In this document: positions 16,544 through 50,599 of the stretch, piece after piece
Layout: the number at the start of each line of letters is the position of its first letter
Position numbering within the stretch: the stretch's first letter is position 1
Program-made: the position numbers and the translations under genes
Source of the DNA: Squalus acanthias
Lineage: Eukaryota
Direction of reading: 5' to 3'
NCBI GenBank assembly: GCA_030390025.1
Contig: CM059432.1
Coordinates: 62,188,001 to 62,252,000 of the forward strand
DNA length: 64,000 bases
Notes under the pieces: generated by a model
What the model was told of the DNA's origin: nothing
What the model saw: the letters and a program-made list of their open reading frames with translations, nothing else
The model's database searches: none

Positions 16544-17430
16544 GTGAGCTTCCATGCATTTTTGCAGTTTTGTTTTGTGAATGCTTTCATCAAGACGAAA
16601 GATATTAGTTACAGTAAATAAAACACTTTGGGCACCCAGTGCCACCATCAAGCAACCCCAGATTGAGCATAGCCCATTTAGATGCAGAGGAAAGTCCCTT
16701 CTACCATGCTCTGACAATGCCCTAATATCAGATGAGCACTGGACTACCATGACAGTTATCCATTTCCCACAATAGCCTTTCTCTAGATCCTGTTTTCTAA
16801 TTTCCTGTTACACACTGAATTAGGGCAGTTCCATATTGTGGATCCTTGCCCTTTAGGAACTGGATTAAGACTGGCCATGTCATTTCATATTAGACTTTTT
16901 AAACCAATAGTGACAGAGGAAACTTTTATTTCAACGTTGGAACCTGGGTTCCAACCCAGCCCACTCTCTTAGATTGGGCTGGATTTAAAACCAGGTTCTC
17001 AAGGTGAACAGCCAGTGCCCATCCAATGCATTTAGAGTTTAACCAAACACTTGTACAAATTAAACATCATAGCTGAATATTTAAATTTAGGGATTTTAGT
17101 AATCTTAATGTTGTGTTTATTTAAATGCACACACATCATTTTCCCATTTTTCATGCTGTCCCCATTATTATCATTTCCCACACACGTGGCTGCCCCAGGC
17201 CCTACCGTTCAGCCTTGAAGTACCTGGCCTTAGTGAGCTGCATTCAGTTTTCCCTACCACTATGAAACCATTTAACCTCTGCTTTGTGTTTGATAATGCA
17301 GCCAAGATTTCTGACTTTTTATAGCAAACTGCATGCACCATGCAGCAGTACACATTGTTGCTAATTTCTAATGACATCATTCCATGGTAACATCTTAACG
17401 GGTTCTTTTTAAACCTGGGATTGCGGTGAA

Positions 17431-17619
17431 GTAATAGGCTACCTGCTTAGGGTAATAGGCTACCTGCTTAGGGTAATAGGCTACCTGCTTAGGGTAATAG
17501 GCTACCTGCTTAGGGTAATAGGCTACCTGCTTAGGGTAATAGGCTACCTGCTTAGGGTAATAGGCTACCTGCTTAGGGTAATAGGCTACCTGCTTAGGGT
17601 AATAGGCTACCTGCTTAGG
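17431..17619 (+). repeat. Perfect minisatellite, 9 x 21 bp (GTAATAGGCTACCTGCTTAGG)
   Basis: 189 bp of identical units. The minus-strand ORF shows PKQVAYY nine times. Confidence 0.97.
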
Positions 17620-17631
17620 GTGAAAGCTCCC

Positions 17632-17763
17632 GATTTCAGGTTGATGACATTTCGGCAGAACCCAAGATGAAAGATCATCAATTTGAAATGTTAACTCTAA
17701 CTTCCTCTCTCCATAGATGTTGCCGGAGCTGCTGAGTGTTTCCAGCATTTTTTGTTTTTATTT
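17632..17763 (+). mobile_element. Degenerate Penelope-like terminal fragment with decayed hammerhead motifs
   Basis: gatgaaagatcatcaatttgaaatgttaactct...gctgctgagtgtttccagc is a diverged version of the 38.7-kb element. It is preceded by an inverted remnant, tttcaggttgatgacatttcggcagaac. Confidence 0.65.
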
Positions 17764-20416: not shown

Positions 20417-20703
20417 GATAACACAACAACTAGAGGGAATGCTGAAAGTATATCATCGACCCAGCAGGAGAAACAAATAAAGATGTTGGGCTTTGAACAT
20501 CGGTTTTCGGCTAACAGTGTATGCGACTCGCTTCTCGAAGTAATTGAAAACCAGGGAGCAGCAGGATGGGCAAAGCAAAATCTGAAAGTAGTTATACAGA
20601 GAGTGTACTGTCTTCCCATTAAAGATGTTCTTCACAATCAACTGACCAGAAACAACCAATCAGATAATTGTCTACCTTCAAATGTAGGTCAACAAAATGC
20701 AAG
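20417..20703 (+). CDS. SPIDR: SPIDR coding exon B
   Basis: atacag|GAT acceptor and AAG|gtaagc donor. Contains DSLLEVIENQGAAGW...LKVVIQRVYCLP, versus human DSLLDVVESQGAASW...VRVVVQRVYSLP. Length 287 nt, phase 0 in, phase 2 out. Confidence 0.93.
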
Positions 20704-22167
20704 GTAAGCCCTGGACTGAAATATTGCAACCAAACTGTCATCATTTACTTTTTTTTACTGATAAACCCAGGAGAAGGACCACGGTTCATAAAGCAGAATG
20801 ATGCCAAGAGAGTAGCAGCAAAAACAAGGTAAATAAGGAATTGGTAAATAGAAGGTACCAAGCTTGGGTTTTGAAAGCCTGAAGATTGTAGGAGGAAGTG
20901 AAGAATGAGCAAGGTAATGGGTTCACACTTTTAAGGTCCTAAGAAAGAATGAGTTAGTCAGTGAGCGTCTCGATTTCAACATGCAGAAAAGAGAATACAA
21001 ACATCAAACTCCTTGGCTCAGCAATACGAGCTTCCCTGGGATAAACAGAGGGCAAACCTGTTTAGAAAAGCTAACAGAATTGGAATCCCCAAGAAAGATT
21101 CGTTCAGTCCCTCTAGTCATAGACGTTCACAGCACAGAAGGAGGCCATTTAGGCCATCATGTCTGTGCCAGCTGTCTGAAACAACTATCCAGTTAGTCCC
21201 ATTCTCCTGCTCTTTTCCCATATCCTTTTAATTTTTTATTTTTCTAAGATTTATCCACTTCCCTTTTAAAAGCTATTATGGGTTCTTATTCCACTGTTGT
21301 TTCTGGTAGGCCATTCCATGTCCTAACAAGACTCTTAAGTAAAAAAAAAATTCTCCTAACATCCCCTTTTGCACATTTGATGATTTAAAATTATGTTGTC
21401 AAGTTACCATCTCAATAGTTTATCTCAATTTACCTCATCAAAACCCTCATAATGTTGGGCTCCTCTCTCACTCAGTAATGGCACTGTTTTACTACAAAGT
21501 CTCGCTCTGCCCACTAATGGAATATTGTAGCCTTGTTTGGAAGGCTGGTTGGCCTACTCTAGCAGTTCTCAAACTTTTGCAGGCTGTGCCTCACCAAAAA
21601 TCCTCATACTGTTGCTCACCCCACTAATTATGGATACTATTACCATTAGATCTGAAGAAGTGGAAACCAAGACCTACAAATGTAAGTGTTGTGACCCATT
21701 TGGAAGTAGGAGAGGCTGACTAGAATTGTGGTCTTGGCAGGGATGCCCCATTTTCCTGCCGTTTTGGGGCAGGATAGTGGATGAAAATCCAGCCCAATAT
21801 GTCTCTTGTGAAAACTGTGTCCATATTTGGTTATTGCTCAAAATAGTCAAACAAATATCTATCATTATTTCTGAATTAAGTTGTCTGAGAAAAGTGCCTG
21901 CCATAGAAAATGAACTTGTATTTATTCCTGAAAAGGAAAGTGGAAAGTAAGGGGGAGTGGGGGAGGGAAGAACTTTTTTAGTTTAGTTGCAGCTAAAAGT
22001 TCCCTGTCCCTTTCCAGTATGTGGTATATTCACAGGACATCTTCCACCCTGGATACAGTACACTTTTCCCAGACAATTCTGGCAGAAGGTATGCGTAGTG
22101 AAGTTTAACGTGATACTCTAAATGTTATAGAGTCCTAGCTGCTGCACTATCTGTGGAGCATGTGGTC

Positions 22168-24735: not shown

Positions 24736-25619
24736 AAAAAATGTAAACTGGGTCGTGTGCCATCTCAGGTAAAGCTGCATAGAGTTTTGGATACATTTTT
24801 CTTGCAGTAACTTGTGGTAAATTGGCCGAGAAATTTGATTAGGCCGGAAAGCGCGGGCCAAGGCTAACGGCCGCCCACAAAAAGAAGGCAGGCAGCACCG
24901 GTATTTTGGGGCTGCCTGCTGATTTACATGAGCGGAGCGGAGAATCTCTTGTGCAACTCGCTCTTTCTGCCGCAAACCTCAGCAGGAGGCCAAAGGTCGT
25001 GTCTGAAAGATTGGTGCGGCGTTCTCGGGCAATATGCTGTTTCGGATCATTTGGTGATGGGTCCTGGGTTTTGCTGGGTCAGGAGGTATTGAGTCCACTG
25101 ATGGCCCTTGTAGGGTTGGAGCATTGTGCGTTGTGGCACATTACGAGGCATTTGTTTGTCCACGGCTCCCTTCTTACTTTCGCGGACATTTGTCTGGGTC
25201 TTGTGTGGGGTCCACAAATGGGTGCTGGACTGCCTGGTACTCCCACCTTCGCTGGCTGCCATCGATCCAAAGATCTTTCACCCAGATGATTGCTGTGTGG
25301 AGATTTGTGCAGGAAGGCGATGGGGATGCACCGTCTTGCAGCTAGCAGTGACAGTGCACTCGCCTGCATATCGCATAGGGGATTCACTCTCTGGTGAGTG
25401 GTTCTTAAAGCACAGGCTCAGATCTGGAGAGACTGTGACTGGAAACACCACATAAAGGCCGGAATCTTACTGGCGCTGCGAGTTTGGAGGCGGGTCTGCT
25501 GTCAAATGGCAGTGATTGACAGTGGGGCGGAAGTCCACTCTGAAACCACCTCCTTGTTAATTTTCCAAGTGCCAGGTCTGCAAACCGCCGCGCTAACGAC
25601 TTACCGAAAGAGAGAGAGT

Positions 25620-27050
25620 GGAAAGCATGGCCAGAGGGAGGAGGGCCAACAGGGCTCTCCACAGGAGACCTTACCCTCCCGGGGTATTCCGGGAGCAGTT
25701 TTCATATATCCATCTGTCAGAGGAGTAGTGTATTAGAAGGCTCCGCTTCAGCAAGGAGGTGGTCACAGAGCTCTGCAGCCAGAGCTCCAGCCTCAGCTCA
25801 GGACCAGGATGTGTCTATCGGTGGCAGTGAAGGTCACAGTCGCTCTCAATTTCTACGCCAGCGGCTCCTTCCAGGCTTCAAAAGTGTCTATTGCGAACAT
25901 CTCCCAGTTCGCTGTCCATTGCTGCATCCGGGAGGTCACAGATGCTCTCTACAAAAGGAGAAGGGAGTACATCTCATTCCCCATGACCCGAGACAAACAC
26001 CATGAACGCGCAATTTCTCTCTCTCCCCCACGGCAGCTGTCTTTCATTCTGCCAGCATTTCACACTTCACACTTCTGAGCCATCTTTTATTTCTTAACCT
26101 GTCCTATTACCATCTCGTCTTGCCTTGAGCATCTCTTAATGTCTCTACTTATCACAGACCTCCCCTTTTGTTCTTTTATTCCTTCCCCCAGCCTCCCACT
26201 TGCTTTTTTATGTTTCATTTCCTGCTTTTTTCTCCGTTCTGACGAAGGGTCTTCGACCTGAAACATTAACTCTGTTTCTCTCTCCACGGATGTTGCCTGG
26301 CCTGCTGAGTTTTTCCAGCGTTTTCTGTTATTTCAGTTTTCCAGCATCCGCAGTACTTTGCTATGGTACCATGAACGCGCATGTGGCTTCGCAAGGATAG
26401 CGGGCTTCCCCATAGTTCAGGGCGCCATTAACTGCACGCACGTGGCATTGCATCATCAAAATGCAGAGGTGTTTCCGCAGCCGCAAAGGCTACCACTCTC
26501 TGAACATGCAGTTGGTGTGCGACCACAGACAGCGCATCGTCACCATCAATGCCCGCTATCCTGGCAGCAGCCATAATTCATTCATCCTGCACCAGACTGG
26601 TGTCCCAGCACTGTTCCAACCACCTCATCAAGCTCATGGCTGGTTCCTCAGAGACAAGGGTTATCCACTCTGCACCTGGCTGATGACACCGCTCCGTAAC
26701 CCCAACACTCCTGCTGAGCTCGCCTACAATGAGAGCCAGAGCGCCACCAGGAACCTCATTGAGCAGACTGTCAGCATGCTGGAGCAACGGTTCCGGTGTC
26801 TTCACCACTCTGGAGGAGCCCTGCAGTACTCCCCTGATCAAGTATTGGTTTTCATTGTTGTGTGCTGCATGCTGCACAACCTCGCCATTCTGAGGACCCA
26901 GCCATTGCCACCAGGGATTGGTGGACCACCTCAGAAGGAGGGAGAGGAGGATGAAGAGGAGGAGGAGCAGCAACAATGTGGGAGGGAGGCGCTCAATGTT
27001 GCTTCTGCAAGGGCCATTCGTGAACGCCTCATTACACAGCGCTTCCGATG
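25620..27050 (+). pseudogene. Harbinger 2 DDE transposase, interrupted at 26013-26367
   Basis: RRPYP...FSYIHLSEE*CIRRLRFSKEVV, VKVTVALNFYASGSFQ, GFPIVQGAINCTHV, RKGYHSLNMQLVCD, YPGSSHNSFIL, DKGYPL, IEQTVSMLEQRFRCL. The conserved GAID aspartate reads N. Confidence 0.9.
26013..26367 (+). mobile_element. Non-coding Penelope-like insertion with hammerhead motif
   Basis: 14-bp TSD ACCATGAACGCGCA (25999-26012 and 26368-26381). Removing the insert restores the transposase reading MTRDKHHERACGFARIAG. Hammerhead motif at 26236-26270. Confidence 0.85.
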
Positions 27051-27371
27051 AATGAGAAAGCAGATGGCATTTGGGCTCAATAACCACATCATTACAGCCA
27101 GCCCGCAGCCCCTATGACCGGCTAAAGTTCCAATGAGAAACATGAGGAAATTTGTGACGTTGAAATAAACATTTTTATTATTCTGAACAACTGTGTCTTA
27201 TTACGCACAACCAATAACAAACAAACACAACAATTTATTAACGAACAGAACTGGTTCTTAGCGCATCGAAATAATTCTTAACAAATTGAACAATATATTT
27301 ACAAACACATCCAACTTTGGTACAAACACTCCCCCCCATTTGGTCTAAAACTTTTAGTTATTGGGCCTTCC

Positions 27372-29240
27372 TCAATGATCTCCCTCCCCTTCGCACTTCC
27401 CTCTCCCACCCCTACTGCTCCTCTGTAATCTGGCCCCAGTGGCTGCAACAAGGCTGGTAGAAGACTGCTGAATCTGGGATCCAGAGACTGCAGATGGCCT
27501 TGCAGGATGCCCTCGAACAGCTCTGGGCCTGGAGGGCCCGGCTGCAGACTGCACCAACTCTGCATGGGTGGCAGCAGTCTGGGCTGGGTTACAGGCTGTG
27601 GCAAGTGCAATGGCAGAGTGACAGTGGTGGGAGCAGGAATGCAGTCACCCTGAGAGAGGACAGCACCTTCCTGCTCGACCAACACACTGCCACTCCCCCG
27701 GGGCAGAATCACAGGATCCAGAGCAATCTGCTCGAGCACCAATTGCTAGCCTGCTGCGGCACCATCAGACCCCCGGTGGACAGTGGTCGACCCAGCTACG
27801 ATGGCAGCAGTCAGTGCTTGCGTGGTATCAATCTGAGACTGCATCAGAGCAGTCTGAGATTGCATGGCACCAACCAATGACTTGATTCTAGCACTAAGCC
27901 ATTGCTTTGCCTCGGCCTGTGCTGCAATAGATGCTGCCACCTCATCCATTACACGCGGCATGGGGTCTGGGTTTCCACGGTCTCCCTGCAAGTCAACTAT
28001 CCTCTGCAAAGTGGCAAGGATGGGCCCGAGGGTTTGCGCACAGATGACAGCTGTACTGGCGGCGGACTCCTCCACGCTCCTAGCCAGTGCATCCATGCTC
28101 TCGGGCACCCTTGCCATTGCACCCATGCTCATTGCCTGAGTATTCATCGCCGCGATATCGAGGTCCTCATCCGAGTCCTGTGCAGCGGAACTCGTGCACG
28201 CGCTCACCCTCTGGGAAGATGGCCCCCGAGCTTCCCTTTCCCCATGGCATTGCTGCAGCCCGCTGTGTCCCGGAGCTTCACCCACATCGGAGCCAATTCC
28301 TCTGCTCCCCTTCAGTGACCGCGTGGTCCCAGTATCTGATGTGTCGCCCTCGGGAGACGCAGGCAGTGAGGCTCTGGCGTGGTGTTCCTGATCCTCTTCT
28401 ACGTCGCTGCCACTGGGAGGCTGAGGGACAGGCTGTTCAGATGGTGGCTCACTATCTGAAAGCAGGAAGGCACAAGAGTGGGTTTAATGTGAGGGGAGGG
28501 GGGCAGGAAGGGAGCAAGGAATGGAGACCGTATACTTCGCTGGAAAGTGGGAAGGGCTTGTGTTGTGAGGGGGAAATGGTATGAGAGAAGAGGGAGAGGT
28601 GATGAACATACCGTTGCTGTCCCCAAGGGGGTCAACCTCTCCGACTGCCACAGCACCTACGACATGGCTCGCGATGATGCTGTCCACTCGCTCCTCCAGC
28701 TGTGTGAGGGGGTGCAGCTCGGCCTGACCTCCCGTGCTTGGCTGCTCCCTCCTGTTATGAGCAAGCTTGGCCTGCAAGAAAAAGGACAGCGGTGAGTGAG
28801 TGTGCAGCCATGTGTTTGGCAGATGTGCCTACCATAGTCGAATAGCCGTTAATATCTGCAAGGTGTGAGATGTGGATGTGACTTTTAGTAGACGGGCATA
28901 GTTGGTGGCTAAGTGTTGAGGATTTGGCAGTTTATACCGTCTACTCAGAGTGAGGTTGAGATGGTGGGATGTAGAGGTATTTCAAGCATTTACTCACCCT
29001 GACCACCCGAGTGAGGTCATTGAACTTCTTGCGGCACTGGGTGCGAGTCCTTTGGCCCACGCTTCTGAACGAGACGTACTGGGCCACCTCCCTCCACATC
29101 CTTGTGAACTCCCGGGACAATGGCCTCCTGCCAGTGTCTGGGAACAGCACTGCCCATCGGCCTTCCACAGCCACTACCAGAGCCTCCAATGCCTGGTCGC
29201 TGAACCGGCGAGCTCTCTCCCTGGGCCTCTGAGCAGCCAT
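27372..29240 (-). pseudogene. Harbinger 2 Myb/SANT-like gene; exons 29240-28998, 28771-28612 and 28455 to about 27372
   Basis: MAAQRPRERARRFSDQALEALV...WREVA...RTRTQCRKKFNDLTRVVR|AKLAHNRREQPSTGG. GT/AG sites are in phase. One premature TAG at 27746-27748 and a late frameshift. Confidence 0.87.
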
Positions 29241-29777
29241 GAGATTCCTAGTTGAAGAATTGCACCTTCTTGCAGGCCCAGGTCACAAGCAGCAATGATC
29301 AGGGTGAGCATGATTGAACCTCTCCTTTAAGAACTGGAAGGTGCCAGTCTGTCTGAGTACCAGATAATTGGCGGCGCCCGAGCTTGAGTAGCGCTCTGAG
29401 GTAGCGCCCCGTTCCCTGATGTTAGCACCCTAAGAGAAGTGTGTAGCGCTTGATTTAGCGCTCCAATCATCTCCAGGGGCGCCAGAGACGAATTTCGCGG
29501 CCGCCGGCGCCAAGGTTTGCGGCCAGCTGATGTTCGGGCCCCAAAAAGGTTGATGCCAAATTTTTCCCCCATAAAATTCTTAAGGGGCTTGACAGGGTTA
29601 ATGCTGAGAAAATGTTTCCCCTGGCTGGGGAATCTAGAATACTGGGTCACCACCTCAGAATAAGGGGTCAGCCATTTATGACTGAGATGAGGAGAAATTT
29701 CTTCACTCAAAGGGTTGTGAATCTTTGGATTCTCTACCCCAGAGAGCCGTGGGTACTCAGTCGTTGAGTATATTCAA

Positions 29778-30193
29778 TGATGCGGAGATGCCGGTGTTGG
29801 ACTGGGGTGGACAAAAGTGAGAAGTCGCACAACACCAGGTTATAGTCCAACAGTTTCATTTGAAATCACAAGCTTTCGGAGCTGCTGCCCCTTCGTCAGG
29901 TGAAGTAAAGGAATACGAATCGACAAAGCATATATAGACAGAGAACAATGCATGTGTAGCGTACAATGGCAGACGACTACATTTAATCCTCCTGACTGCC
30001 TTTCGTCACACCTCGGCAGAGAAACAGTCAGGAGGATTAAGTGTAGTCGTCTGACATTGTACGCTACACATGCATTGTTCTCTATCTATATATGCTTTGT
30101 CGATTCGTATTCCTTTACTTCACCTGACGAAGGGGCAGCAGCTCCGAAAGCTTGTGATTTCAAATAAAACTGTTGGACTATAACCTGGTGTTG
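29778..30193. mobile_element. Palindromic Penelope-like insertion (family B)
   Basis: 13-bp TSD TGAGTATATTCAA (29765-29777 and 30194-30206). 171-bp inverted arms at 29828-29998 and 30025-30195. Confidence 0.88.
30120..30157 (+). ncRNA. Minimal hammerhead ribozyme motif (mirror copy on - strand at 29866-29903)
   Basis: UCAC-CUGACGA-A-GGGGC-AGCA-GCUCC-GAAA-GCUU-GUGA. Has both core boxes, stem II, stem I UCAC/GUGA and a palindromic AAGCUU stem III. Confidence 0.72.
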
Positions 30194-30487
30194 TGAGTAT
30201 ATTCAAGACAGAGGTCGATAAATTTTTGGGAATTAAGGGATATGGGGATAGTGCAGGAAGGTGGAGTTGAGGTAGAAGATCAGCCATGATTTTGTTGAAT
30301 GGCGGAGCAGGCTCGAAGGGCTAAATGGCCGCCTCCTGCTCCTATTTCTTATGTTCTTAAGACGTTGATTAAACCACTGTTGGAGCATTGTATAGTGTTG
30401 AGGGCACTCTATTATTAAAAGAATATCGGAGTCATGGAAAATGGACACTGCAGATTCACTAGGATGATAACAGGGATAAAGCTATAA

Positions 30488-38462: not shown

Positions 38463-38597
38463 ATAGAATTTTTAAATCTTTCAAAGTTGACTTAAAATTT
38501 TATCTGATAATTCTAATCGAATATTGGACTCTGAAATGGCACAAGTTTGAATCCTATGCTGGACTGACAAAATTTAATGCAACTGCTATTGGAAATA

Positions 38598-38856
38598 CGA
38601 TAGCAAAATACTGCGGATACTGGAAATCCGAAATAACAACAGAAAACGCTGGAAAAACTCAGCAGGCCAGGCAGCATCCGTGGAGAGAGAAACAGAGTTA
38701 ACGTTTCAGGTCGAAGACCTTTCGTCAGAACTGGAAAAAATTTCCTGCTTTTTTCCAGATCTGACGAAAGGTCTTCGACCTGAAACGTTAACTCTGTTTC
38801 TCTCTCCATGGATGCTGCCTGGCCTGCTGAGTTTTTCCAGCGTTTTCTGTTGTTAT
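38598..38856. mobile_element. Palindromic Penelope-like insertion (family A)
   Basis: 14-bp TSD TGCTATTGGAAATA (38584-38597 and 38857-38870). 109-bp inverted arms at 38632-38740 and 38749-38857. Same family as 26013-26367. Confidence 0.88.
38696..38732 (-). ncRNA. Minimal hammerhead ribozyme motif (mirror copy on + strand at 38757-38793)
   Basis: AGUU-CUGACGA-A-AGGUC-UUC-GACCU-GAAA-CGUU-AACU. Stem I AGUU/AACU, a stem II hairpin, and a palindromic AACGUU stem III. Confidence 0.72.
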
Positions 38857-39021
38857 TGCTATTGGAAATAGTTTTACTGTTCCTTGGTAGACAACTGCAA
38901 CACTCCCTTGGAAGAAGGAAATTAGCTGGCTGGTCCTGCCTTGCAGAAGTACACCACCTACTATGGTGGATTTAGAATCACGATTAATGGTAGATGGAGA
39001 CTTGTCTACCCCTGAGACTAA

Positions 39022-47118: not shown

Positions 47119-47172
47119 TTCAAATAAAACTGTTGGACTATAACCTGGTGTTGTGCGACCTCTCAATTTTGT
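47119..47172 (+). mobile_element. 54-bp Penelope-like family B micro-insertion
   Basis: ttcaaataaaactgttggactataacctggtgttgtgcgac matches 30159-30195. 10-bp TSD CCACCCATAT (47109-47118 and 47173-47182). Confidence 0.8.
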
Positions 47173-47843
47173 CCACCCATATATGCCACTGGTCTGCTCT
47201 AACATTTAAAAGATTACAACTAAAAAAAAACCTGTTGATAACTTCCAATAGTGTTAAAATTAGAATACTGACAGGATTCTCATTTGTATCCTCTCTTTAG
47301 TGCTGTCAACAGGGAATTATTGCTGGGACTTATGGCAGGGGCAAGTCACATCTAATTTTATTTTTCCCCATGCTGTGGTGTGTGTAACCAAGAGAGGAGA
47401 TTAAACTATTGTGTGCAAAGTGATGTAACCTTGTCATCAACAAGATAGAAGTCCAGCTATGCATCTCTGCAATTGTTCTTGAGAACAAAACAAAATCTGG
47501 AAGACTGTTTACTGCAGTCCGGCTGCAGGTGCTGTGGCATTTGTTTATTTGCAATCTGGTAGTCACAATTCTACTATCCGTACTCCACAACAACACACAA
47601 ATCTAGCCCAGTGTTTATTAGATCATTGCTATTCCCAACACCTAAAAACCTGATCAATTTAATCTTGTGGAATAAACAGAGTAATTATGTAAGGACAATC
47701 ACATGAGGTGAAATTAAATTTTAAAAACAAGTGATTAACAATAATGGGTTGGGACATAGTCAAAATAAAAAAGTTGATCTTAAAGGAGAAGGTACCCCTA
47801 CCAGAAATTAGACTAATGAGTTTAATGATTTGTTTTCCTGTAG

Positions 47844-48005
47844 GTTATGTCTTCTTGTACAGGACATGTATGGTTTATTTAGTGAAGTTCACCAGCATAC
47901 ATTCTGCTCATTAGAAGAGGACTTGCAGGTGCTAAGTGCCTGCTGGGAAGGAAAGACATGCTATCTAACAGGAATGAAGATTCTACAGAGAACAACGAGA
48001 GGGAG
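47844..48005 (+). CDS. SPIDR: SPIDR coding exon C
   Basis: ttcctgtag|G acceptor and GAG|gtaaga donor. Translates (R)LCLLVQDMYGLFSEVH...WEGKTCYLTGMKILQRTTRG(R), versus human ACLLVQDACGMFGEVH...LEGKSCSLVGMKVLQKVTRGR. Length 162 nt, phase 2 to 2. Not in the ORF track. Confidence 0.93.
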
Positions 48006-50599
48006 GTAAGAATGGAGACTGATCCAGAAAATGTATCTTGATTAGCAAGACCCTGTACTCCTGCTGAAGTTATTTCTGGCACAAGCTTAGACTTGCAGGG
48101 CACCAAAGCCCTTGCTGGATATTAGATATTCTTGCTCCAAACATGATACAAAACCTTGATTCAGTGTTCCTCAGGTATCATGTTTTGCTGAACAGCCTAA
48201 TAAAATTGGTCAACCTGCTGTCACACTTTACAGGCCTGTTGGGTTATGATGTTGTGGCTTACATTGATAATACTATTGACATTTATGATTTGTACATGAT
48301 ATTGATTACTGGATATCAGATATACTGTTGTGTAGCTTTTACTTGTGACTCACAATAGAGGGGCAAAGAAGGTACCATTCCAAAGTTAATGTAATTGGAG
48401 GCATAGAATAGTATAATTTATATTATGGAATGCAGTTAATCAAAAATCACATTACTGCCTGTGCTTTACCACAAGAGCCAAGAGATTTAGGAGTTATCTA
48501 TTTAGAACAAAGTTTGGAGTCCAGATCAGTGGATAACTAATGTAGACTTGCATTGTATTGTATTGCCAGTTTATGATGTCGCCAAATAGCAATAAAGCCA
48601 TTGGGCTGAACATCCTCCACTGGTTTTAACCTTTGTTCATTTTATTTTGGGTATGTGTGTTCATTTATGCAAAGAAGAGTACAGAGAAATGGATACTTTT
48701 AAGTCCTGCTGTATCCTTGTTGCTCAAGCTAAATGTTATCAGAATTGCTTTGGAAGTAGTTTAAATATTTAACCAGTACCACATTTGCCAGTTAAAAAGC
48801 TTTAACAGCATAGCATGTGCTAATCATGCATTATTTAAGTTATATTTTGTGATTTGTATTTAGTATTAAACGCACCTCATTAAAACTAGTGCCTCAAGAA
48901 AATAAAAAAGCCATTATTTGTGTTTCAGGAACCTGCCTGACAAATAATTTTTAGTTCTCTTATGTCAGTGCCAATATGGTCAGTAAAATTTGGAATGATT
49001 TATTTTGTCTTGCCAGGTATGATTAAACCCTGTGACAATAGTCATATGAACCACAGTAGGATTCTGTTATATTTAATAAGTCACATTGCAAAAAGGTTGC
49101 TCTGAAACTTGAACTGGATATGACAGAAATGACTATCAATACTGTACCAAGGCATTTGGCAACAGATTAGGGCTTGGTAAAGATTTATCTACAGTAGCCC
49201 ATTTTTTATAGTGCTGTTTTTAAGATCCATACAGAAGTATGTCATGGCAATGGGGGCATGTTGCGTAGAAAATGTTTTATATGATTTCTGCAGGAGACTG
49301 TAAACCCTGTGTGCTATATCAAAGGTGCTGCATTACAGCAGTCCTTGGCTATATCGGGAATTTGTTTGTATCATGTTCACATATTAATGGATTTGGCTTT
49401 AACTGCACTACCCTGCTGACAGTTAACAGCTCCCAGTTTCCTTGATTTATTTATTTTGATATGGCCTAGCTTCTATGAGGACTGCATTTCAGGTTCCCGA
49501 AACAAAAAATAATGCTGCTTTCTGCTGCAAACTATTCAATCCTGCTTGGCTGATCGAGTGTCTATTTTTAAAGATATTTCAATCAACTGAAAAGCAAATA
49601 AGTGATCATTTTCATGAAAGTGATCGGTGTGAATATGATACCACGATAATGTTCTTAACCTTTTTTAAAAATAGCGGGGCGGTGGGAGGGAGGTGAGGTG
49701 GTGGGCGTGCCGGAGAGGACAAAGACAGAAGTTTTTTTTGTTGACAATCTCAGGTATTGGCAGATGAATCGGTTGTTAAATAGCAATCAGAACAAGCTAG
49801 GGCTTGCTTGCTTAACACTTTATGACTGATTGTTCAGTGCCTTTTCTAGTAATGTTTTCAATCTACAGCCTTGCTGTTCAGTGTAATACTAAACCCTGGT
49901 TGAGCAGGTTTTTCCTCTTCCACAAGACACTTTGCAGACTAAAGCAGTCACTGCCTAATACAATAAATAAGAAGAAACATAAATTAATCAGAGTGTGACT
50001 GTTTCTGTAAGTTAGATTTTCTTAATGGTGCAGTTTTTTTGAGTAAGACTTGAAAGGAGCAACTAGAAGGAATGGTCAGTGGGCGCACCATTTGCACAAA
50101 ATATTCTCTATTGCACCCCCCACCCCCACCCCCAATGTTAGGAGCACTATCATTTTTCTAACATATTTTCCTCCTTAAGGTGACTAGCCCCTTGAAATCT
50201 CTGCGCTCTCCAGTTATTTGCAGAGAAAAGCTCACTTCCTCTGCCCTCAAAAGAGCTCTCCCTAATGCATCAATCTGACATTTTACACTTCCTACACCAC
50301 TCATCCTAGGACTTCTCCAAGTGAAAACGCCACTATAGTGTCAGTATAGTCCATGTAATTAGTTGTAATTACACTTTAAATTAGAGCCTTAGTGTCATAG
50401 GAAATGTCAAGAGCAGTGAGTTTCATGTTCTGTGCATGTTGTGATATGTTCACAGTAGTAATTCCTCTGGAGGGCATTCAGGACTTCAGTTGCAAACACT
50501 GTCTACTAATTAATATTCTGATGAAACAGATAGCAGTAATGGAGGGTAGGATTAATGTGCACAGAGATCACTTAATGTGAACAGTACATTAATGATATG

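Follow-up and report, generated by a model that had tools for sequence, protein, structure and literature searches.

The 416-bp insert found at positions 29778-30193 of the window (the whole 64,000-nucleotide stretch of DNA analysed here) is probably the product of a single retrotransposition event, most likely by a Penelope-like element (PLE) family of great abundance, hereafter family B. PLE insertions combine a target site duplication (TSD), a tail, a head-to-head inverted copy and a minimal hammerhead motif (PMC8557442, PMC3846280, PMC4209133, PMC11167929; published work is cited here and below from its available portions). A TSD, a tail restricted to one arm, an inverted 5'-truncated copy and a minimal hammerhead are all present in this insert, which sustains the truncated inverted Penelope-like insertion put forward in a preliminary description of the sequence. 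By every testable feature, the insert would belong with the inverted insertions of PLEs, the defining RT/GIY-YIG ORF lying outside this test. PLE parentage is judged most likely from layout and motif, no RT/GIY-YIG gene of the family having been seen. Such an insert is the ordinary footprint of a PLE insertion, whose layout has already been described. The genome seems to hold very many young fold-backs, and the statistics of their junctions could tell whether the inverted copy arises by twin priming from a pair of start sites or by snap-back of the cDNA, a step of PLE transposition that is called unresolved in PMC8557442 and PMC11167929.

Structure of the insert and of its target site

The insert is flanked on both sides by the exact, AT-rich 13-bp word TGAGTATATTCAA, at 29765-29777 and 30194-30206, and both the length and the duplication announced in the preliminary description are thus recovered. 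It splits the 3' end of a LINE, which we take to be of the CR1 type, located on the plus strand at 29641-30360 (these outer bounds are those of the query and not mapped ends). The paralogues of this LINE in the window sit at the ends of RT-coding LINE copies. When the insert was cut out in silico and the flanks were aligned, the site proved to be empty in all five of the paralogous copies of the window that span it, and the letters equivalent to the repeat are single-copy in each of these five. The 13 bp can therefore be regarded as a true TSD. Directly to the left of the host LINE lies a GC-rich element (about 24800-29600), with a Harbinger-type DDE transposase frame at 26416-27048 (PF13359, E 8.6e-27) and a hammerhead copy of another family at 26217-26363.

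Within the insert, two inverted arms of 171 nt each, at 29828-29998 and 30025-30195, present exactly 4 mismatches and enclose a spacer of 26 nt (29999-30024), in agreement with the earlier count made by eye. Arm 1, on the minus strand and antisense to the SPIDR-like gene described below, is the body of the main pLTR-like copy. It alone bears a tail, the unpaired 50 nt of its 3' end (29778-29827, minus strand). Arm 2, on the plus strand, is an inverted tail-less copy whose 5' end is 26 nt shorter and whose last 2 nt overlap with the right TSD. Folding predicts a 5-bp inner stem, CUGCC/GGCAG, between the spacer and the arm end. The fold-back hairpin initially described is therefore correct as to its inverted arms but not as to its symmetry, since 50 nt are left unpaired at one end. 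No start-to-stop ORF of note is present, as had been claimed, and the longest stop-free frame reaches 87 aa; a coding element was rejected. An 81-aa frame spanning the junction has no homologue in a protein search (proteins of 44-142 aa).

An inverted 5'-truncated copy with a tail at one end only is the typical PLE layout according to PMC8557442, and the same layout is given as typical in PMC8969392; published tails measure 30-40 bp. Like the inverted insertions of EN+ PLEs (Penelope/Poseidon, Neptune, Nematis; Pen2a_Av of Adineta vaga, PMC3846280; PMC8557442), the insert comprises a head-to-head 5'-truncated terminal repeat of about 200-250 nt, a tail on one copy and a TSD around the whole unit. 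It differs from them by the absence of an ORF (solo repeats), by a tail of 50 nt instead of 30-40 and by a TSD of 13 bp, the inverted pLTRs of PMC3846280 having TSDs of 8-10 bp, a tail and consistently palindromic junctions. As a lead only, a TATA-like stretch (29936-29930), reminiscent of EN+ PLEs, lies about 26 nt upstream of TCAC and helix I (region 29936-29904) and is a possible promoter of the terminal repeat.

The hammerhead motifs

Each arm carries one minimal type I hammerhead motif, and the core CUGACGA...GAAA reported in the preliminary description is found at 30124 on the plus strand and at 29899 on the minus strand, with 225 bp between the two cores and a single motif per strand. 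The motif of the main copy occupies 29866-29903 (minus strand; core starting at 29899), with a predicted cut at 29870/29869. That of the inverted copy occupies 30120-30157 (plus strand, sense to the host pre-mRNA), with a predicted cut after 30153. Read in its own sense, each arm shows a helix I of 4 bp, CUGACGA, an extra A, a helix II of 5 bp, GAAA, GC, UU and the cut site. In arm 2, the core covers 30124-30130, helix II covers 30132-30145 and closes with G10.1-C11.1, and GAAA is at 30146-30149, together with a palindromic AGCU. The AAGCUU previously assigned to stem III is indeed a palindrome; since the A and the U at its two ends belong to the core (positions 14 and 17), helix III of a dimer would be the 4-bp AGCU.

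A purpose-built descriptor of the minimal hammerhead matches four times in the window, once in each arm and once in each of two copies of another family; the rate over 100 Markov-shuffled windows is 0.02 matches per window. The Rfam covariance models do not return the hammerhead that the preliminary description proposed to search for in this way: no hammerhead model matches the insert, neither at the gathering score nor at E<=10. The 8 matches found at E<=10, all under their gathering scores, concern a miRNA-type hairpin and other unrelated models. A miRNA precursor was rejected; the miRNA-type matches lie far under the gathering scores and are what any long hairpin gives.

All four diagnostic traits of PMC4209133 that are visible in a single copy are present: the extra base between 9 and 10.1, the G10.1-C11.1 pair, the palindromic 15.2-16.2 and the 4-bp helix I. 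By these traits and by its core, which fits the consensus CUGANGA/GAAA/UH, with a helix I inside the expected 4-5 bp, the motif resembles the minimal hammerheads (min-HHR) of metazoan PLEs (Cervera and De la Pena 2014, PMC4209133). The arrangement is also comparable, 225 bp falling within the 100-700 bp that separate the dual opposite-strand motifs reported in 2014 in the same article. Helix II, with 5 bp, is shorter than the 7-8 bp of the Schistosoma min-HHR (PMC4209133), and the available main text of this article gives no example from a cartilaginous fish.

In published assays, a single minimal motif did not cleave and dimers cleaved weakly (PMC4209133), and the Anolis motif needed the PLE protein to cleave and was dispensable for insertion in vitro (PMC11167929). 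ViennaRNA places the active dimer at -21.5 kcal/mol, against -29.7 for the best dimer and -24.0 for two monomers, both alternatives being predicted as more stable. The monomer of arm 2 folds no better than its shuffles (z -0.14 to -0.84); this is what is expected of minimal hammerheads, and the monomer folds therefore carry no weight.

AATAAA at 30163-30168, 10 nt past the predicted cut of arm 2 and sense to the host pre-mRNA, is a possible poly(A) signal of the terminal repeat. Its counterpart in arm 1 is mutated, and T accounts there for 99% of the family depth in the public contigs considered next.

Copies of family B in the window and in public contigs

Contigs from 4 of 20 sequencing runs (X1, X5, X7 and X15) were aligned to positions 29640-30024, arm 2 being omitted on purpose. 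Read as a summed contig depth, which is not a copy number and whose fall owes something to the divergence of subfamilies (organism C), the signal suggests that family B is very abundant and that its copies share their 3' ends. Indeed, the depth, which is no count of copies, falls 31-fold in X1, from 6.0 million (29822-29834) to 0.19 million (29978-29990), and 52-fold toward the spacer in X5, from 8.0 million to 0.15 million. It peaks in both runs close to the inner end of the tail. Across the tail itself, it rises stepwise in X5 (1.06, 1.54, 3.99 and 7.99 million) and also by steps in X1. The only other family-B copy in the window, at 47119-47178 on the plus strand, is a 60-bp fragment restricted to the 3' part, without hammerhead, which ends inside the tail; its 10-bp TSD overlaps its 3' end by 6 nt. 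An exact 24-base pattern from the arm gave 0 matches in contigs of metagenomes, of viruses and of prokaryote genomes alike, a result to be expected of a vertebrate repeat.

The depth over the spacer is close to that of the arm end, and not half of it (203,000 against 192,000-245,000 in X1; 124,000 against 154,000 in X5). In addition, one X15 contig covers 29942-30024 and thereby the entire spacer. On these two grounds, the spacer (minus strand) is family sequence that extends the main copy 5'-ward. Since a hairpin would double the depth of the arm over that of the spacer, most of the spacer-bearing copies of family B probably differ from this hairpin, the comparison being a crude one.

Fold-back points were read from 24 of 1014 loose-end entries and from 15 of 18 joints. 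In three X1 contigs, the arm end meets the spacer in the orientation of the hairpin, at an agreement of 0.98. Two of 30 letters are unlike those of the locus, which implies at least one other copy with this junction. A strand-change joint elsewhere, at 29812/29894, is present in a single X7 contig and a single X15 contig and fits a fold-back at another point. Among the joints listed, five others connect copies of the host LINE (region 29710-29777) with 3' ends of family B lying at 29813-29818. Two, at 29774 and 29777, adjoin the insertion site, perhaps as a preferred target, perhaps because this LINE is abundant.

Variation within the family can be set against the hammerhead structure. At position 29889 of helix II, G-U becomes A-U in 53% (X1) and 69% (X5) of the depth, and in organism C (X7) the core and helix II are kept whereas the sequence beyond 29904-29913 is unrelated. 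These variations are compatible with the hammerhead structure. A change at 29867, in 14% of the X1 and X5 depth, breaks a pair of helix I, with no partner change among the variants listed. In organism C, the hammerhead and about 130 nt on its 3' side are kept and the upstream sequence is unrelated, a situation that evokes a modular terminal repeat.

Proposed mechanism and the possibility of a hairpin subfamily

The insert would be explained by the following events. The endonuclease of the element would cut both strands of the AT-rich target 13 bp apart. One of the ends would prime reverse transcription at the tail end, and this first copy, on the minus strand and 5'-truncated, would stop at 30024 after 247 nt. 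The inverted tail-less copy of 171 nt would begin at a second start, about 50 nt inward of the first, in the manner of the two start sites that were measured in the Anolis PLE and whose spacing is the tail (PMC11167929). Alternatively, it would arise by snap-back of the first cDNA, in line with the self-priming proposed in PMC3846280. The product would be a 247-nt main copy placed head-to-head with a 171-nt copy between 13-bp TSDs, and the hammerheads would be passengers of the terminal repeat. In PAc, the Poseidon of Anolis carolinensis (Frangieh et al. 2024, PMC11167929), the tail is likewise defined by two 3' ends downstream of the hammerhead, and the AT-rich target of the insert, which contains ATT, is a further likeness. 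Unlike those of PAc, the start sites considered here are deduced from one insertion and from contig depth, and no enzyme is known for family B.

Both arms are likely to derive from one template. They share letters that are in the minority in the family, at 29907 (where 86% of the X1 depth differs) and at 29923 (60%), which fits a single template and is compatible with twin priming as well as with snap-back. The recurrence of the junction in three X1 contigs is not predicted by purely random truncation, and a hot spot at this position could result from the 5-bp inner stem of the spacer.

The same recurrence, among the 6 best-supported X1 entries listed, also speaks for a discrete non-autonomous hairpin subfamily, in which a master hairpin, or a master PLE with an inverted 5' repeat, would be transcribed and then duplicated in one piece by PLE enzymes acting in trans, leaving the same spacer junction at many loci; pLTR sequences are indeed sufficient for mobilisation in trans (PMC3846280). 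This origin is nevertheless unlikely. The junction is absent among the entries listed for X5, X7 and X15, the spacer depth is not the half of the arm-end depth that hairpins would give (by a crude measure), and the other family-B copy of the window is a plain fragment. Moreover, a snap-back hot spot at the inner stem explains the recurrence as well, the junctions being consistently palindromic in PMC3846280. In its most developed form, a PLE-derived non-autonomous subfamily moving as a preformed RNA hairpin with a fixed junction and a self-masked ribozyme, and seeding introns with long dsRNA, this proposal is likewise unlikely. If true, a fixed-junction subfamily would amount to a novel type of non-autonomous PLE unit and would supply introns with dsRNA. 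No discrete palindromic PLE family or preformed-hairpin unit was found in the literature searched, mainly articles outside subscription journals, and family B may already bear a name in Repbase or Dfam.

The preliminary description had also offered a retrozyme-like hairpin family, and the retrozyme-like character is not sustained. In non-LTR retrozymes, units follow one another in tandem on one strand, at least two consecutive motifs are present, and monomeric linear and circular RNA is given (PMC7229834; bioRxiv 10.64898/2026.07.22.740005). Like those of animals, the insert is non-coding, a few hundred bases long, related to PLEs and provided with a type I hammerhead. Unlike them, it consists of two inverted copies, with a single motif on each strand and no same-strand tandem, which rules out a non-LTR retrozyme.

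Intronic position and predicted fate of the hairpin

Exons on the plus strand, at about 16340, 20435, 47836, 61439 and 63598, match two proteins with the DUF4502 and DUF4503 domains, and DUF4502 is placed in SPIDR (PMC12738175). The nearest exon regions lie upstream at 20435-20704 and downstream at 47836-48006 (plus strand, alignment bounds), the latter at the start of DUF4503. The insert is therefore located inside an intron of about 27 kb of a SPIDR-like gene, between exons at about 20.7 kb and 47.8 kb, as first proposed. One public SPIDR-like protein, P0001, begins with LINE-derived residues (1-97) that match the LINE copies of the window, probably through an error of the gene model.

The hairpin has a folding energy of -340.7 kcal/mol on the plus strand and -327 kcal/mol on the minus strand (z about -38 and -34), and none of 100 shuffles is as stable. 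On either strand, the motif bases are predicted to pair with the far arm at a probability of at least 0.997. The idea of dsRNA masking in the SPIDR pre-mRNA stands accordingly as to the intron position, established by the exon matches, and as a folding prediction as to the masking itself. In the host pre-mRNA, transcription would yield the antisense arm before the sense motif. Since neither strand holds two motifs, the arms cannot form a dimer ribozyme with each other. The hammerheads of this locus are thus predicted by modelling to be inactive, each needing a same-strand partner for helix III and being paired with the opposite arm, and the effect of the insert on its host is likely to be at most a 171-bp intronic dsRNA. 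At 29898 (core position U4), 1701 of the 13861 depth units of X15 show A-to-G on the plus strand; the share is 0.8% in X1 and 1.5% in X5. This could be editing of an antisense RNA or an allele or subfamily difference, X15 being by guess an RNA run, read as contigs and from another individual.

Other explanations

A retention of the insert because it serves the host within the SPIDR-like pre-mRNA, either as dsRNA for editing or small RNAs or as a conditional ribozyme, could invoke the intronic position on the plus strand and the 171-bp duplex that would form. It is very improbable: the arms differ by only 2.3%, which makes the insert a young one, and it lies within another repeat, in an intron that holds a second unrelated hairpin.

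Long inverted arms and a TSD are also what would be left by a DNA transposon of the MITE kind, bearing long inverted repeats at its termini, or by an inverted duplication through DNA repair after insertion, two origins that are together given equally little credit. The left arm is not terminal, since the 50-nt tail lies outside it, and a one-armed copy exists at 47119-47178; the MITE was rejected on these two points. In addition, the family copies appear to share their 3' ends and thin out 5'-ward in contig depth. The TSD encloses both arms, so that these arrived in one event. Fold-back reads are a known sequencing artefact and no contig listed spans the locus, but an assembly or library chimera, or a palindromic read artefact, is almost certainly excluded and was rejected: the arms differ at 4 positions, the 13-bp TSD is exact, and short-read contigs contain this junction as well.

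A second fold-back in the same intron

A fold-back of an unrelated hammerhead family, family A, is present at 38598-38856, with a TSD of 14 bp, a tail of 34 nt, arms of 109 nt (2 mismatches) and a spacer of 8 nt. This spacer also occurs in the non-hairpin copy at 26217 and is consequently ordinary family sequence. That one layout is seen in two unrelated families speaks for a common mechanism of insertion and not for a special element. With its TSDs, the family-A fold-back spans 38584-38870, about 9 kb from the family-B insert. Further copies of family A lie at 26217-26363 and at about 17634-17763. A short tandem repeat, at 17395-17757 and encoding a YYPKQVA run in one frame, adjoins a diverged copy of this family.
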